This document shows, piece by piece, positions 1 through 5,913 of a stretch of DNA of 5,913 nt (positions are counted from its first letter, which is position 1; the number at the start of each line of letters is the position of its first letter). The stretch lies in IMG/VR virus record IMGVR_UViG_2563366843_000008; one strand, 5' to 3'. The notes under the pieces are model-generated. The model saw only the letters and a program-made list of their open reading frames with translations. It searched no databases and was not told the DNA's origin. Source of the DNA: a virus (Duplodnaviria; Heunggongvirae; Uroviricota; Caudoviricetes). Both the position numbers and the translations under genes were made by a program.

Positions 1-1005
1 GTCGGTCGGGCGAGCGATGATGCGGAAGGTTACCTGGATTTTTTCAAAGGCAAGATAACCGAATCCCATCTCGGCAAGGAGCTGCTGGAAAAAGTCGAGC
101 TGACGGAGGATAACGCCAGCAGACTGGAGGAGTTTTCGAAAGAGTGGAAGGACGCCAACGATAAATGGAATGCCATGTGGGGCGTCAAAATTGAGCAGAC
201 CAAAGACGGCAAACATTATGTCGCGGGGCTTGGCCTCAGCATGGAGGATACGGAGGAAGGCAAACTGAGCCAGTTCCTGGTTGCCGCTAACCGTATCGCG
301 TTTATTGACCCGGCAAACGGGAATGAAACGCCGATGTTTGTGGCGCAGGGCAACCAGATATTCATGAACGAAGTGTTCCTGAAGTATCTGACGGCTCCCA
401 CCATTACCAGCGGCGGTAATCCCCCGGCATTTTCCCTGACACCGGACGGGCGGCTGACGGCGAGAAATGCTGATATCAGCGGTAACGTGAATGCGAACTC
501 CGGGACGCTCAATAATGTCACGGTAAATGAAAACTGTACGATTAAGGGCATGCTGGAGGCGAACCAGGTCAGAGGTGACTTCGTTAAAACTGTATCCAAA
601 TCATTCCCGAAAAAGGCTGGTACGTGGGGTAACACGGAAACACCAAACGGGACGGTTACAGTCACCATTTACGATGATCATAACTTTGACCGCCAAATCA
701 TTATTCCGCCCATTATTTTTAACGGTGTGGCGTATGACGATCCGGGGAGCGGTAATAACCCGGGAGGTACGCGATACACGGGTTATGGTTTTGAAGTTCG
801 CAAAAATGGCGTATTAATCGCATCCAGAGAAACTAAAGGAGCCATTCCCGGTAGTTACAGTGCGGTTATTGATATGCCGAGTGGTGGTGGTAACGTCACT
901 CTGGAGTTTAAGATTTTCCAGAAAGGCAATCAGGGCGCAGGTAACATCACAGACTGTACGGTGATTGTGACCAAAAAAGCTGCTTCCGGTATCAGTATCC
1001 GTTGA
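1..1005 (+). CDS. J: Host specificity protein J-like central tail fibre, C-terminal portion (5'-partial; reading frame open from base 1)
   Basis: Frame 1 is open from position 1 to the TGA at 1003-1005. The translation (…[120 protein letters not shown]…) matches what I recall of the C-terminal third of phage lambda J. The last ~140 residues (from about [14 protein letters not shown]) no longer look like my recollection of lambda J. The ORF-track start at 175 is an internal Met. Confidence 0.88.
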
Positions 1006-1025: not shown

Positions 1026-1050
1026 GGGCGCCAGAAATGGCGCCTTTTTT
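1026..1050 (+). terminator. Rho-independent terminator-like hairpin between J and stf
   Basis: Perfect palindromic stem GGCGCC (1027-1032) / GGCGCC (1039-1044) with loop AGAAAT, followed directly by a T6 run (1045-1050). Confidence 0.55.
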
Positions 1051-1065
1051 ATTTGTGGAGTAAGT

Positions 1066-3249
1066 ATGGCAGTACAGATTTCAGGTGTGCTGAAAGATGG
1101 TGCGGGAAAACCAATACAGAACTGCACTATTCAACTGAAGGCAAAGCGTAACAGCACCACGGTACTGGTGAACACGGTGGCCTCTGAAAATCCGGATGAA
1201 GCCGGGCGTTACAGCATGGATGTTGAGTATGGCCAGTACAGCGTTATCCTGCTTGTTGAAGGTTTTCCGCCTTCACATGCCGGAACCATTACCGTCTATG
1301 AAGGTTCCAGACCAGGTACGCTGAATGATTTTCTCGGTGCCATGACGGAAGATGATGTCATGCCGGAGGCATTGCGTCGTTTTGAGGAAATGGTGGAAGA
1401 AGCGGCACGCAACGCTGAAGCCGCCTCTCAGAGCGCAGCGGCGGCAAAGAAATCCGAAACTGCAGCGGCATCATCGAAGAACGCGGCGAAAACCTCAGAA
1501 ACGAATGCAGCTAACAGCGCACAGGCGGCAGCGGCCTTGCAGACTGCATCGGCAAACTCCGCAACAGCAGCTAAAAAATCAGAAACCAACGCGAAAAATA
1601 GCGAGACAGCCGCAAAGACGAGCGAAACCAACGCAAAGTCCAGCCAGACGGCAGCGAAGACCAGCGAAACGAATGCCAAAGCCAGTGAAACTGCGGCGAA
1701 AAGCAGTCAGGATGCAGCGGCTCAAAGCGAGAGTGCCGCAGCCAGTTCTGCAAGCGCGGCGGCTGCTTCTGCCACTGCATCAGCTAACAGTCAAAAAGCA
1801 GCAAAAACCAGTGAAACCAACGCAAAGGTGAGCGAAACAGCGGCTGCGAACTCAGCGAAAGCATCGGCAGCAAGCCAGACGGCAGCTAAAGCAAGCGAAG
1901 ATGCAGCCAGAGAGTACGCAAGCCAGGCTGCGGAGCCGTATAAATATGTCTTACAGCCGCTGCCTGATGTGTGGATACCATTTAACGATTCGCTGGATAT
2001 GATTACGGGCTTTTCGCCGTCATATAAAAAAATTGTTATTGGTGACGATGAAATAACGATGCCTGGCGACAAGATTGTTAAGTTTAAACGTGCATCGAAA
2101 GCAACCTATATTAACAAATCTGGTGTGCTGACAGAGGCTGCCATTGACGAGCCACGATTTGAACGTGATGGCCTGCTTATTGAGGGGCAAAGAACAAACT
2201 ACATGCTCAATTCGGAAAACCCTGCCAGTTGGGGGCGATCGTCAAATATGGATGTTCCCGAAACCGGGACGGATAGTTTTGGTTTTACCTATGGAAAGTT
2301 TGTCTGTAACGATTCTCTGATTGGGCAAACCTCAGCCATTAATATGGCATCAATTGCTGCAACAAAGTCAGTTGATGTCTCAGGCGATAATAAATACGTG
2401 ACAACCTCATGTCGTTTTAAAACAGAACTGCAGGTAAGGTTGCGTATCCGGTTTGATAAATATGACGGTAGCGCAACAACTTTTCTTGGTGATGCGTATA
2501 TTGATACACAAACGCTTGAAATTACTATGACAGGCGGTGCTGCCTCAAGGATTACTGCGAGAGTCAGAAAGGACGAAGCTACCGGATGGATTTTTGCAGA
2601 GGCAACAATTCAGGCAATTGATGGGGAGTTAAAAATAGGTTCTCAGATACAGTATTCTCCTAAGCAGGGCGGGGCAACCGTATCTGGTGACTATATTTAT
2701 CTGGCCACCCCACAAGTAGAAAATGGGCCTTGTGTATCATCTTTTATTATATCAGGAACGACGGCGGCGACCCGCGCAAGCGATATAGTTACAGTTCCCA
2801 TTAAGAATAATCTTTATAATCTTCCTTTTACGGTTCTTTGTGAGGTACATAAGAACTGGTATAAAACGCCAAATGCAGCGCCGCGTGTTTTTGACACCGG
2901 CGGTCATCAAACCGGAGCGGCTATTATTCTTGGCTTCGGTCGTTCAACAGATTACGACGGATTTCCTTATTGCGATATTGGAGGAGCTAACAGACGGGTA
3001 AACGAAAACGCATCGCTTGAAAAAATGGTTATGGGGATGCGTGTAAAGTCAGAGCAGTCTACGTGCTCAGTAAGTAACGGGCATATATCCAGCGAAACAA
3101 AAACCACATGGTCCTGTATTCAGAACACCGCAATTATCCGTATTGGAGGCCAGACTACAGCCGGGTTACGTCATTTATTTGGTCATGTCAGGAATTTCAG
3201 AATATGGCACAAGGCATTGACTGATGCTCAGGTGGGGGAGTCAATCTAA
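1066..3249 (+). CDS. stf: Side tail fibre protein: lambda Stf-like N-terminal domain, phage tail-fibre repeats, and a C-terminal concanavalin A-like/LamG-type lectin domain
   Basis: ATG at 1066 follows GGAG at 1056-1059. The N-terminus (MAVQISGVLKDGAGKPIQNCTIQLKAKRNSTTVLVNTVASENPDEAGRYSMDVEYGQYSVILLVEGFPPSHAGTITVYEGSRPGTLNDFLGAMTEDD) closely resembles the lambda Stf N-terminus as I recall it. Residues ~125-275 are low-complexity A/S/T/K/E repeats (…AAKTSETNAKSSQTAAKTSETNAKASET…). The C-terminal ~430 aa are non-lambda and end in …GLRHLFGHVRNFRIWHKALTDAQVGESI, which fits the terminal strand motif of Laminin-G_3/concanavalin A-like domains (G-x-[IV]-x-x-[FV]-R-I-[WY]-x-[KR]-A-L-[ST]-x-x-[EQ]-[IV]). 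Confidence 0.88.
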   Translation: MAVQISGVLKDGAGKPIQNCTIQLKAKRNSTTVLVNTVASENPDEAGRYSMDVEYGQYSVILLVEGFPPSHAGTITVYEGSRPGTLNDFLGAMTEDDVMPEALRRFEEMVEEAARNAEAASQSAAAAKKSETAAASSKNAAKTSETNAANSAQAAAALQTASANSATAAKKSETNAKNSETAAKTSETNAKSSQTAAKTSETNAKASETAAKSSQDAAAQSESAAASSASAAAASATASANSQKAAKTSETNAKVSETAAANSAKASAASQTAAKASEDAAREYASQAAEPYKYVLQPLPDVWIPFNDSLDMITGFSPSYKKIVIGDDEITMPGDKIVKFKRASKATYINKSGVLTEAAIDEPRFERDGLLIEGQRTNYMLNSENPASWGRSSNMDVPETGTDSFGFTYGKFVCNDSLIGQTSAINMASIAATKSVDVSGDNKYVTTSCRFKTELQVRLRIRFDKYDGSATTFLGDAYIDTQTLEITMTGGAASRITARVRKDEATGWIFAEATIQAIDGELKIGSQIQYSPKQGGATVSGDYIYLATPQVENGPCVSSFIISGTTAATRASDIVTVPIKNNLYNLPFTVLCEVHKNWYKTPNAAPRVFDTGGHQTGAAIILGFGRSTDYDGFPYCDIGGANRRVNENASLEKMVMGMRVKSEQSTCSVSNGHISSETKTTWSCIQNTAIIRIGGQTTAGLRHLFGHVRNFRIWHKALTDAQVGESI
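1438..1890 (+). repeat. Degenerate tandem ~42-bp coding repeats (phage tail-fibre repeat region) inside stf
   Basis: Recurring 14-aa units such as AAKTSETNAKSSQT / AAKTSETNAKASET / AAKSSQDAAAQSES correspond to a ~42-nt DNA periodicity. This low-complexity stretch also produces the spurious overlapping ORFs on both strands (1352-1831 +, 1428-1679 -, 1571-1780 -, 1791-2072 -). Confidence 0.7.
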
Positions 3250-3530
3250 TGAAAGATTTAACACTCAAATTTGAAGACAGGGCCGACTTTTCGGCCTTTA
3301 TGGATAGCACTGGCTATTATGATGACGAGTCGATGCAGGATGATATTCTTATTGACGTGATAGGTAACGTGTACAAAGAAACCGGAGAACTGACTGAAGA
3401 TGGCGAACCGGTATGTGTTAAGGAAGACGGATATTTTGTAAGCGTGCGCATCATTAATGATTCGCAAATATCGTCATTATTCGATGAATACGTGGTTGCT
3501 GTTGAGCATCAACTTCGTGGCTGGATGTGA
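3249..3530 (+). CDS. Small acidic hypothetical protein (93 aa), translationally coupled to stf; candidate fibre assembly chaperone or adaptor
   Basis: Its ATG (3249-3251) shares a base with the stf stop TAA (3247-3249), giving a TAATG overlap. A purine-rich SD-like GGGGGAG lies a few nt upstream. The product is strongly acidic (many D/E: MKDLTLKFEDRADFSAFMDSTGYYDDESMQDDILIDVIGNVYKETGELTEDGEPV…). I could not recognise a family by eye. Confidence 0.65.
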   Translation: MKDLTLKFEDRADFSAFMDSTGYYDDESMQDDILIDVIGNVYKETGELTEDGEPVCVKEDGYFVSVRIINDSQISSLFDEYVVAVEHQLRGWM

Positions 3531-3539
3531 GGAAGAAAA

Positions 3540-4580
3540 ATGGCTACATCGACAGTAATTCCTGATGACATCAAAACGCTAAAATCCGACGTTAGCAAAT
3601 TAAAAAACGATCAAGGAAGCTACGCAACAAAATTATATGTAGACAGCAAAGATGAAATCGTTGGTGACTGGTCTGCTTCATGGTATCAGCAGGTATTGCC
3701 AACTAGCGGAGCTATATTTGGGAGAAAACTCCGCTCAACTCACAGGACGGCAGGTGTTGAGGATGCGTATTGCGAACTATACCTCAAAAAATGGATAGAC
3801 AGTCCAGGTAACGCAATGGCGCGCCTTAACCTGAACGATAACGGGACAAACATTTGCTGGGACTTTACCAACCTTTATGGCGGTACGATGATTTTTCCCG
3901 GTGACAGCGGATACCTCAAAATGGGTAACTGCCTTATGTCATACAGCAAGCGTGGAAGTAACGCGCTTATTAAATTTGATTACACCGACACATTACAGAT
4001 CAAATATGCCAATCATGGGTCAACCATGACATTAAACACACAGGGAACCGCTTATGCTGGTGTTACTGCTCAATTGTGGGGCAACACCAGCCGTCCTGTT
4101 GTTTATGAAGTCGGTGTTGATGGTGGCGCTTATATGTTCTATGCGCAGAAAAATACCGATAACACCTATATGTTAAGCGTTAATGGTGCATGTCATGCCA
4201 CCGCATTTAACCAGCATTCCGACCGGGATCTGAAAGACAACATTCAGGTGATCGATAATGCAACCGACCGCATCCGTAAAATGAACGGCTATACATACAC
4301 GCTTAAAGAAAACGGTATGCCCTATGCTGGTGTCATTGCACAGGAAGCTCTGGAAGCAATCCCAGAAGTTGTAGGTTCCGCAATGAAATATCAGGACGGT
4401 GCAAGCGGATCGGAAGGTGAAGAAGGTGAACGTTATTACACAGTAGATTATTCTGGTGTTACTGGCTTGCTTGTTCAGGTAGCCAGAGAGTCAGACGACA
4501 GAATAACAGCACTGGAAGAAGAAAACGCAGAATTAAGACAAAGATTATCTGCAATTGAGGCGGCGCTTGCGTCTAAATAA
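3540..4580 (+). CDS. Tail fibre/tailspike-like protein (346 aa) with C-terminal intramolecular chaperone auto-processing domain (peptidase S74-like)
   Basis: SD GAGGA (3529-3533) sits 6 nt before the ATG at 3540. The C-terminal region contains …ACHATAFNQH-S227-DRDL-K232-DNIQVIDNATDRIRKMNGYTYTL…GVIAQEALEAIPEVV… and ends in a heptad-like helix (RITALEEENAELRQRLSAIEAALASK). The S-x4-K spacing, with Ser codon TCC at 4218-4220 and Lys codon AAA at 4233-4235, matches the catalytic Ser/Lys dyad of endosialidase-type intramolecular chaperone domains (K1F endoNF, T5 pb1). The stop codon is TAA at 4578-4580. Confidence 0.8.
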   Translation: MATSTVIPDDIKTLKSDVSKLKNDQGSYATKLYVDSKDEIVGDWSASWYQQVLPTSGAIFGRKLRSTHRTAGVEDAYCELYLKKWIDSPGNAMARLNLNDNGTNICWDFTNLYGGTMIFPGDSGYLKMGNCLMSYSKRGSNALIKFDYTDTLQIKYANHGSTMTLNTQGTAYAGVTAQLWGNTSRPVVYEVGVDGGAYMFYAQKNTDNTYMLSVNGACHATAFNQHSDRDLKDNIQVIDNATDRIRKMNGYTYTLKENGMPYAGVIAQEALEAIPEVVGSAMKYQDGASGSEGEEGERYYTVDYSGVTGLLVQVARESDDRITALEEENAELRQRLSAIEAALASK

Positions 4581-4586
4581 TATTAA

Positions 4587-4609
4587 GGGGCCGAGCGCCC
4601 CGTTTTATT
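4587..4609 (+). terminator. Rho-independent terminator closing the stf-orf93-orf346 unit
   Basis: GC stem GGGGC (4587-4591) / GCCCC (4597-4601) with loop CGAGC, then GTTTTATT; it begins 7 nt after the orf346 stop. Confidence 0.65.
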
Positions 4610-4622
4610 GGGTAGGATGAAA

Positions 4623-4916
4623 ATGGATATAACACCTTTCCTTCATGCGCTTTGTGCTGTGGCTGCGCAGGTACTGGTTGGTCTTTTTACCGGGAACTGG
4701 GCTTACGGAGCGATAGCCGGTTGTACGTTCTTCATTGCGCGTGAACACACCCAGGCAGAATATCGCTGGATTGAAATGTTCGGGCATGGCAAGCGTATGA
4801 ATATGCCGTGGTGGGGTGGTTTTGATCCGCGCGTGTGGGATATGGCAAGCCTGGTGGATTTTGCTGTGCCGGTGGTGGCGTGTCTGCTGATCTGGCTGTT
4901 GGTTAATCACGGGTGA
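4623..4916 (+). CDS. Small hydrophobic protein (~97 aa), predicted inner-membrane protein with 2-3 transmembrane segments; function unknown
   Basis: The ORF is open from 4608 (TTG) to the TGA at 4914-4916. In-frame ATGs lie at 4617 and 4623, and AGGA at 4614-4617 gives a 5-nt spacer to the ATG at 4623. Hydrophobic stretches FLHALCAVAAQVLVGLFTG, AYGAIAGCTFFIA and LVDFAVPVVACLLIWLLV are separated by a charged/aromatic loop (REHTQAEYRWIEMFGHGKRMNMPWWGGFDPRVWD). The exact start is uncertain. Confidence 0.55.
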   Translation: MDITPFLHALCAVAAQVLVGLFTGNWAYGAIAGCTFFIAREHTQAEYRWIEMFGHGKRMNMPWWGGFDPRVWDMASLVDFAVPVVACLLIWLLVNHG

Positions 4917-5072
4917 AAAAGGTGAGCTGTAAATGTCGGAGGAAGAACCATCATTGTTGGCGTGGAAGAAGTATTTGTGTTGTTGAATCATGGTCAGCGG
5001 GAGATGAAGGAAGAACTGAATAACTTGGAGGATTTGAAGTCGATACGAATGTTAAGTATTGAATAATGAATA

Positions 5073-5094
5073 AACCGCGATGAGCGGTTTTTTT
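5073..5094 (+). terminator. Rho-independent terminator (+ strand)
   Basis: Stem AACCGC (5073-5078) / GCGGTT (5084-5089), loop GATGA, followed by a T7 run (through 5094). Confidence 0.6.
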
Positions 5095-5108
5095 GTACCT
5101 GAAAAATG

Positions 5109-5138
5109 AAAGCCCGGCTGCGTCAACAGTCGGGCTTT
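5109..5138. terminator. Bidirectional intrinsic terminator-like hairpin
   Basis: A 12-bp stem AAAGCCCGGCTG (5109-5120) / CAGTCGGGCTTT (5127-5138, with one G-U pair) and loop CGTCAA. It is flanked by an A-run upstream and a T-run downstream, so either strand reads hairpin plus U-tract. It could terminate the convergent minus-strand gene and any + strand read-through. Confidence 0.5.
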
Positions 5139-5349
5139 TAGCTTTTGATAATTGCGAGTTCTAATATGGAGGTCTTCCGTGTTCAATTTTAGCGGAGGAG
5201 ACTGGATAGTGAAAGCCCTAAAATTACTGGCAAGAAGCCGAAGATTACGCCAGATTTATTATTCCACATTAGTTGCTGCGCTGATATATGCCCTGATACG
5301 TTCCCCCCGTATTGGTTGAGTTGGTAAAACTATACGGGAATTAATAAAA

Positions 5350-5913
5350 TCAGAGTCGCATCAATCGTTCCACCAGTTGTTCTTTACGGGCAACGATCCA
5401 GCCGTGTTGCTCCAGATAAAATTTAAACCGCTCCAGAGTGCATACCATCGCATCGGCGGGGACTTTTTCCGTGAACTCGACCTGACCGTGTTTATCGAAG
5501 TGGATCAGTAATGTGCATCCATTATTTTCGTTGAGGGAGTTTTGTGCTGCTGGTGGTTGTTTTTGGCTGAAATAACAGTCTTCGAGTTTTTCGAACACTT
5601 CCCACGCCTGATCGGTTTCGAGCATTTTTGCGTGGCGAGCTGCCCCGCGTTCTGTCCATAGGATGAGGGAGCGGGCTTTGGGAGATATGGGGTTTTGTGA
5701 CTTACTTAAAGTAAGTCGCAAATTTTTTAATTCTTCACCCGATGCTTTAAAAAAGTGCTTTCCTTCGACAAAACGCTCTTTGTTTCTGGTGAAGTTAACC
5801 TGGATATTCTGAATTTCGGTGCCATAAAGCTGCGCCAAAAGTTCAGTGGTAATAACAGGAATCTGGTTATGGGTGATCGGGGAGAGAGTTTCAACAGAGA
5901 TTTGAGTGGCCAT
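5350..5913 (-). CDS. ORF6N-domain (KilAC/antirepressor-like) DNA-binding protein; start lies at the window edge and may be 5'-truncated
   Basis: The minus-strand ORF ends at a TGA (reverse complement of 5350-5352). The N-terminal ~100 aa (…IPVITTELLAQLYGTEIQNIQVNFTRNKERFVEGKHFFKASGEELKNLRLT…ARSLILWTERGAARHAKMLETDQAWEVFEKL…) follow the ORF6N pattern as I recall it (LA-LYG-E…RN-ERF-E…F…EEL … TE-G-A…L…A--V). The C-terminal ~80 aa are unrecognised. The Met codon is the reverse complement of the last three bases of the window. Confidence 0.7.
   Translation of the reverse strand: MATQISVETLSPITHNQIPVITTELLAQLYGTEIQNIQVNFTRNKERFVEGKHFFKASGEELKNLRLTLSKSQNPISPKARSLILWTERGAARHAKMLETDQAWEVFEKLEDCYFSQKQPPAAQNSLNENNGCTLLIHFDKHGQVEFTEKVPADAMVCTLERFKFYLEQHGWIVARKEQLVERLMRL

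Follow-up and report, generated by a model that had tools for sequence, protein, structure and literature searches.

A Lambda-type Side-fibre Cassette That Probably Builds a Two-part Fibre with Two Receptor-binding Parts

Introduction

Lateral fibres of phages can consist of two or more proteins, according to BASEL (PMC8594841), and a branched lateral tail fibre (LTF) has been established genetically in DT57C and DT571/2, where it is made of LtfA and LtfB (PMC4728585, PMC10713586). The closest described relatives of the locus considered here are the three-gene cassettes of Bas32 (IrisVonRoten; Gp22, Gp23 and Gp24) and AKFV33 (ORF137, ORF136 and ORF135). An AlphaFold-Multimer model of the Bas32 fibre places the distal Gp24 on the proximal Gp22, with a galectin-like C-terminal domain protruding as a possible extra receptor-binding domain (RBD) (PMC11990801). 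ORF137 and ORF135 of AKFV33 were described in 2012 as fibre proteins, with the hypothetical ORF136 between them; proteomics of this phage identified just four major bands, and ORF137, the homologue of the C-terminal part of Stf, was detected in virions by mass spectrometry while the other two cassette proteins were not (PMC3326045). The middle protein is discussed in neither paper (PMC11990801, PMC3326045). The present analysis concerns the genes stf, orf93 and orf346 in a stretch of 5,913 nt (one strand, hereafter the window) of the Caudoviricetes virus IMGVR_UViG_2563366843_000008 from IMG/VR.

The product of the window's side-fibre cassette is probably a fibre in two segments that has two receptor-binding parts. 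Stf would join the lambda-type tail via its PF08400 N-terminus, and its repeat-rich shaft would end in a conserved junction, followed by variable domains, one resembling carbohydrate-binding modules (CBM) and the spike fibre of a gene transfer agent (GTA), the other laminin G (LamG) or galectin, that may bind surface polysaccharide. The orf346 protein would be a short trimeric distal fibre. Its Peptidase_S74 (S74) domain would drive folding of the trimer and afterwards be removed by a cut in front of Ser227, and its conserved N-terminal motif, together with the coiled coil, would attach it to that part of the Stf C-terminal module which is conserved. The orf93 protein would be an accessory protein of that module, needed with or without the distal fibre. 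A fibre of one proximal and one distal protein is the best reading because the cassette moves as a unit between unlike tails and because the homologous T5-like cassette has been modelled in this way (PMC11990801), and the bipartite side fibre proposed in an initial annotation of this DNA is retained on these grounds. The architecture proposed there is essentially the published prediction for the homologous cassette, here on a lambda-type anchor. Two-part or branched lateral fibres and S74 chaperones are already established biology, so that the layout is largely ordinary, and the arrangement is far commoner and better known than the initial annotation assumed.

Relationship to Described Fibre Systems

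Gene order and spacing in the Bas32 and AKFV33 cassettes are the same as in the window. Gp22 is 63% identical to the Stf C-terminal module, the 92-aa Gp23 is 37% identical to the orf93 protein, and Gp24 shares with the orf346 protein the N-terminal motif and a C-terminal S74 intramolecular chaperone (IMC). Every element of a Bas32-type cassette is found in the window: a homologous fibre C-terminal module, an orf93 homologue and a third protein with motif and IMC, in this order. The systems differ in the anchor, which is the lambda Stf N-terminus (PF08400) in the window and of the T5 Ltf/LtfC type in Bas32 and AKFV33, and in the distal protein, which is a 346-aa single-RBD fibre in the window and a 574-aa T-shaped dual-RBD protein in Bas32.

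DT57C and DT571/2 resemble the window in having two adjacent fibre genes, the second encoding a protein that has no tail anchor and is attached via the first; the receptor specificities of LtfA and LtfB differ. However, DT57C carries S74 on both proteins with no small gene between them, whereas Stf of the window has lectin-like domains and no Peptidase_S74 match in Pfam, and orf93 intervenes. The LtfAB proteins of DT571/2 also lack the N-terminal motif of the cassette. The resemblance to the DT57C-type branched LTF is functional only.

The stf-tfa region of lambda shares with the window the N-terminal attachment domain and the location downstream of J, but in the window tfa is reduced to a vestige, the cassette takes the place of the distal half of Stf, and a second fibre gene is present. 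Residues 371–571 of Stf resemble the head-spike fibre Rcc01080 of RcGTA, which is flexible, binds capsule and is docked through a short peptide at its N-terminus (PMC7296036); Rcc01080 is a single subunit on the head, whereas the domain in the window is the C-terminal tip of a tail fibre. The IMCs of K1F endosialidase, T5 pb1 and S16 gp37 share with the orf346 protein the SDRxxK dyad motif, the C-terminal position and the following helix, although the mature part of the latter has only 226 aa and no anchor domain of its own. In rV5 itself the fibre locus has an S74 allele without orf93, so that proteomics of rV5 virions is uninformative here. No literature match to the accession numbers or FIG name of the cassette proteins was found.

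Distribution and Mobility of the Cassette

The cassette, which comprises the C-terminal ~430 aa of Stf, orf93 and the third gene, moves as a unit between phage families. Nucleotides 1066–4610 of the window are 97–98.5% identical to the lambdoid isolates Tritos, HannyBb, PhiR63_1 and 2G7b; Tritos, which is E. coli LF82 prophage 3, is viable and produces both plaques and siphovirus particles (PMC9928086). In Nonagvirus ESCO3 the nucleotide identity is 95% from about residue 297 of Stf onward, orf93 included, and the orf346 homologue has 351 aa (92% aa identity). The Drexlerviridae phage tunus has a fibre C-terminus with 77% aa identity, an orf93 homologue with 48% and a third protein of 245 aa. 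A 111-kb T5-like contig encodes LtfC and then, in this order, a fibre of 783 aa, a protein of 92 aa and an S74 protein of 326 aa, and a 50-kb T1-like contig has the same order with proteins of 653, 91 and 338 aa. The three-gene order is identical in IrisVonRoten (Bas32), AKFV33 and Dhillonvirus KarlBarth. Conservation of the order in homologues, which the initial annotation had put forward as a check, is borne out by 80 IMG/VR loci in which order and 9-nt gap recur wherever the flanks are complete, and stf, orf93 and orf346 are thus not chance open reading frames (ORFs).

Since the cassette is found on unlike tails, the attachment site of the third protein must travel with it. This bears on whether the orf346 protein could instead be an independent fibre, placed on the tail or another virion site and linked to stf only genomically. 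Such an arrangement is improbable, given that third gene and motif accompany the Stf C-terminal module and orf93 onto tails of the lambdoid, T1-like, 9g-like, Dhillonvirus and T5-like kinds, that these recipient tails have no common tail-tip proteins beyond the cassette and that the motif is absent outside it, even though the interface between Stf and the orf346 protein is itself a matter of inference and weak density in DT57C suggests that LtfB may touch the tail tip (PMC10713586).

Of 5426 complete E. coli genomes, 522 (~10%) have both orf93 and orf346 at ≥80% coverage, and ~1130 (~21%) have orf93 with the first ~15 codons of the next gene. The cassette ranks among the commonest modules for host range in siphoviruses and prophages of E. 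coli, and its dissection provides a practical map for host-range engineering in lambda-based vectors and for sequence-based receptor prediction: on either side of a conserved island, Stf tip and third protein are both variable and reassort; a short, portable, putative docking motif is part of the distal fibre; and the middle gene is associated with the fibre tip, not with the distal fibre.

Stf: Anchor, Shaft, Junction and Variable Tip

As the initial annotation stated, Stf retains the lambda-type tail-attachment domain (Table 1). The AT skew of the repeat shaft that follows is extreme, about 0.5. The length of this shaft differs among loci, giving Stf proteins of 727 to about 800 aa, and KTSETNA-type repeats are also found in the LTFs of T5-like and Drexlerviridae (T1-like) phages. 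Stf is conserved up to residue 380 and over its last 27 residues (701–727, conservation 0.8), while residues 381–700 are variable. Within the conserved part, the junction at residues 291–380 is nearly invariant across phage families, with invariant columns in the alignment.

The variable tip (2206–3165) is made of two independently reassorting subdomains, at about residues 381–560 and 580–700; in one locus (L011) the first is different and the second identical. Alleles of residues 381–700 are 45–98% identical and pair freely with alleles of the third gene. Residues 371–571 match NF048003 (NCBIfam, above cut-off), the GTA head-spike-fibre domain, which is a polysaccharide-binding sandwich, and PDB 6tb9, which places a CBM-like fold in this region, and the AlphaFold2 (AF2) monomer of the C-terminal 437 aa is confident for the CBM-like core only. 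The second subdomain gives a match to Laminin_G_3 (E 0.0014, 19.2 bits) that is below cut-off. Judged by these similarities, the Stf tip is a variable lectin-like RBD of the CBM/GTA spike-fibre kind, which would bind glycans. A role for Stf as a mere carrier or adaptor was considered and rejected, as its tip is itself a variable lectin-like domain.

The Third Protein: Docking Motif, Fibre Body and S74 Chaperone

The C-terminal chaperone anticipated for orf346 is present: PF13884 matches residues 227–278 with an E-value of 4.8e-14 and 52.8 bits, against a Pfam gathering score of 22. The catalytic dyad consists of Ser227 (4218–4220) and Lys232 (4233–4235) in HS227DRDLK232, an S-D-x-x-x-K motif at the domain boundary, and SDRDLK aligns with SDRRIK of the S16 gp37 IMC (6f45). 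A cut before Ser227 is predicted to give products of 24.9 and 13.2 kDa. In the fibre body, residues 35–110 are hypervariable, with three sub-alleles and dN (nonsynonymous divergence) up to 0.6, residues ~92–226 have homologues in the tips of long tail fibres made of a single chain (phrog_6578, phrog_5668), and a weak T4 gp34 motif is present.

Lambdoid prophages carry two major alleles of the third gene, one of 346 aa (with the three sub-alleles) and one of 234 aa, consisting of a coiled coil, a small tip and a confirmed S74 domain. Across alleles of 346, 234, 245, 326, 338 and 574 aa, only the N-terminal motif, variable heptads and S74 are common, and the longer alleles match Lpp-type coiled coils. 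Some prophages have a third gene truncated by frameshift or stop to 90–227 aa (the L034-type loci L019, L035, L079 and L084), which suggests that some lysogens can dispense with the distal fibre or are losing it.

The initial annotation called the orf346 protein anchor-less. This holds for a Stf-type anchor, as PF08400 has no match in it in Pfam, but the protein has a small, conserved and cassette-specific N-terminal motif of its own, M[AV]TxTxIPxDIxxLK, with heptads. Residues 1–26 are the sole N-terminal segment shared by the 346- and 234-aa alleles and the tunus, T5-like, Dhillonvirus and Bas32 proteins. When the N-terminus of Bas32 Gp24 is compared with a phage collection, matches covering residues 1–26 occur only in T5-like genomes, and orf93 is likewise present in those open to a cross-check. 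In DT571/2, phiKT, Wifcevirus and Kuravirus homology to Gp24 begins at residue 27–49, and homologues of the downstream domains outside orf93-containing cassettes are without the first 26–48 residues. Such cassette specificity is as expected for a docking element, and the motif probably is one.

Homology of residues ~92–342 to the C-termini of single-chain fibres of 1210 and 1567 aa (phrog_6578, phrog_5668), together with the tfa vestige downstream, might suggest that orf346 is the decaying C-terminal remnant of a formerly long Stf left by recombination. This is very improbable and was rejected. The 346-aa ORF is intact, with its own Shine-Dalgarno sequence and ATG, in 522 complete E. coli genomes and in isolated phages; its dN/dS (nonsynonymous to synonymous divergence) of 0.13–0.38 against diverged alleles indicates purifying selection; and the third gene has structured allelic diversity and a conserved N-terminal motif, with truncated copies only occasional. 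The orf346 protein is better regarded as the distal segment of the two-part fibre.

The Middle Protein

The 93-aa protein is acidic, as described initially, with a pI of 4.05 and 22 Asp and Glu against 7 Lys and Arg. It belongs to a small family (50 representatives of clusters in a set of 1.8 billion proteins) that is confined to enterobacterial phages: lambdoid, Drexlerviridae, Dhillonvirus, Queuovirinae, T5-like and rV5-like myoviruses (181 phage records). The protein and 23 relatives have no match in Pfam or NCBIfam or to an annotated PHROG, Tfa/Caudo_TAP included, and no annotated function was found within the family. The AF2 model (pLDDT, for predicted local distance difference test, 84.7) is a small beta-alpha-alpha-beta4-alpha domain, for which no informative structural neighbours were found. 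Two giant Ig-repeat surface proteins (P0397, P0398) match residues 32–63 in 5–8 repeats; these matches are probably spurious, arising by compositional or beta-hairpin coincidence.

The initial annotation suggested that orf93 might encode an adaptor, i.e., a physical joint linking the orf346 protein to Stf. Its position between stf and orf346 with translational coupling, its being the most conserved of the three genes (88–99% identity) between two variable flanks, and the restriction of the third protein's N-terminal motif to orf93-containing cassettes all speak for such a joint. However, orf93 is always located 3' of a fibre gene whose end encodes the conserved ...HLFGHVRNFRIWHK... module, whether the third gene is present or not. 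In phage 21 and Lambda_2G7a the gene for the 97-aa membrane protein comes immediately after orf93, without an intervening S74 gene, the rV5-like EmilHeitz has orf93 without the motif-bearing third gene, and 4A7 likewise keeps orf93 after the same fibre C-terminus without it. This retention ties orf93 to the fibre tip, not to orf346. The published Bas32 model joins Gp24 to Gp22 with no mention of Gp23 (PMC11990801), the orf93 protein has no structural similarity to known phage adaptors, and its low synonymous divergence suggests that its conservation is partly recombinational. An adaptor is thus unlikely: the loci without a third gene argue against it, although they would still be compatible with a dual role. 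The orf93 protein most likely takes the place of Tfa, either as an assembly factor or as a small bound subunit.

A wider and more tentative proposal is that the orf93 family forms a new class of tail-fibre accessory proteins that, in at least six phage lineages, occur in obligate pairing with lectin-tipped lateral fibres. Its members might be a Tfa-independent chaperone for monomeric CBM- or galectin-type tips; alternatively, they might provide the structural socket in a universal plug-and-socket joint by which distal fibres with the M[AV]TxTxIPxDIxxLK plug are swapped between unrelated phages.

Conservation, Recombination and the Two-part Fibre

Several points weigh against a two-part fibre held together at a conserved interface. 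The conserved island, i.e., the Stf tail, orf93 and the first ~15 codons of orf346, is unusually low in synonymous divergence (dS is 0.03–0.12 in orf93 against 0.14–2.8 in residues 111–226 of the orf346 protein), so that part of its conservation may reflect recombination instead of a protein interface. The AF2 model has pLDDT <50 in the conserved Stf junction and in the last 170 aa, and the fold of the orf93 protein offers no clue to its function. The identities of the domains, the joint transfer of the cassette with reassortment of its alleles and the co-occurrence of the motif are observed here, while docking, cleavage, glycan binding, the role of the orf93 protein and the presence of the orf346 and orf93 proteins in virions are inferred. 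The dN/dS of orf93 among close alleles is too noisy for interpretation.

The island (3249–3585) probably also serves as a recombination linker for the shuffling of Stf tips and distal fibres. Megablast matches to it in ~600 extra genomes end at query position ~335.

Locus Layout and Flanking Genes

The close packing of the three genes described in the initial annotation is confirmed. The stf/orf93 junction is TCTAATGAAA, in which one base is common to the stf TAA and the orf93 ATG, and the gap between orf93 and orf346 is GGAAGAAAA, inside TGAGGAAGAAAAATG, which contains the GAGGA Shine-Dalgarno sequence.

Table 1. Coordinates of the genes, protein segments and signals of the window (TM, transmembrane segments; ConA, concanavalin A)
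Feature	Position	Strand	Basis or remark
gpJ 3' end	175–1005	+	Phage_Tail_Tip and Ig_GpJ_C (Pfam)
Intrinsic terminator between gpJ and stf	1026–1055	+	8-bp stem, T-run (terminator scan); strong
stf	1066–3249	+	727 aa, ORF
Stf aa 1–131, lambda-type tail-attachment domain	1066–1458	+	PF08400 phage_tail_N, E 1.6e-67 (Pfam)
Stf aa ~108–290, Ala/Ser/Thr-rich KTSETNA-type repeat shaft	1387–1935	+	Translation; strong AT skew
Stf aa 291–380, junction segment (QPLPDVWIPFNDSLDM...LLIEGQRTN), candidate docking platform	1936–2205	+	Conservation 0.84–0.96
Stf aa ~381–556, variable CBM-like/GTA head-spike-fibre domain, putative glycan-binding RBD 1	2206–2733	+	
Stf aa ~557–727, second variable subdomain, conserved C-terminal tail HLFGHVRNFRIWHKALTD	2734–3249	+	Weak LamG/ConA-like signal
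orf93	3249–3530	+	93 aa, ORF; TAATG overlap with stf
orf93–orf346 spacer, 9 nt	3531–3539	+	Overlaps Shine-Dalgarno GAGGA (3529–3533) of orf346
orf346	3540–4580	+	346 aa, ORF; 9-nt gap after orf93
orf346 aa 1–26, motif M[AV]TxTxIPxDIxxLK and heptads, putative docking peptide and trimeric coiled-coil stalk	3540–3617	+	
orf346 aa 35–226, mature fibre body	3642–4217	+	
orf346 aa 227–346, Peptidase_S74 intramolecular chaperone, then C-terminal heptad helix	4218–4580	+	PF13884
Weak terminator-like hairpin (5 GC pairs; 4587–4601), then GTTTTATT	4587–4609	+	Terminator scan
97-aa membrane protein	4623–4916	+	Two TM, phrog_1443, no Pfam family
tfa vestige, ~16 codons (SEEEPSLLAWKKY...)	~4925–4975	+	Compared with L003 8125–8235
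ORF6N-domain gene, divergent, antirepressor-like	5350–5913	-	Runs off window end

The strong terminator that separates gpJ from stf (1026–1045) is annotated in phage 21 too, and expression of stf, orf93 and orf346 presumably needs read-through by Q-type antitermination. The single intrinsic terminator that the initial annotation placed after orf346 corresponds to a hairpin found by the terminator scan, but it is weak: with a dG of -11.7 kcal/mol and a z-score of -0.72 against shuffles, it fits the consensus without being more stable than shuffled sequence.

The window has no intact tfa gene, and its non-canonical character relative to lambda stf-tfa was correctly recognized in the initial annotation. 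The tfa vestige matches a tfa pseudogene annotated by PGAP in E. coli LF82. In LF82/Tritos the degraded tfa trace is followed by the pinQ invertase, which suggests that an ancestral invertible stf-tfa region has been overwritten by the cassette. The two-TM protein encoded after the cassette may be a moron or have an exclusion function. Similarity to LF82/Tritos stops at ~4987–4999, with a mosaic junction beyond, where further terminator-like hairpins are located at 5072–5090 (bidirectional) and 5107–5140.

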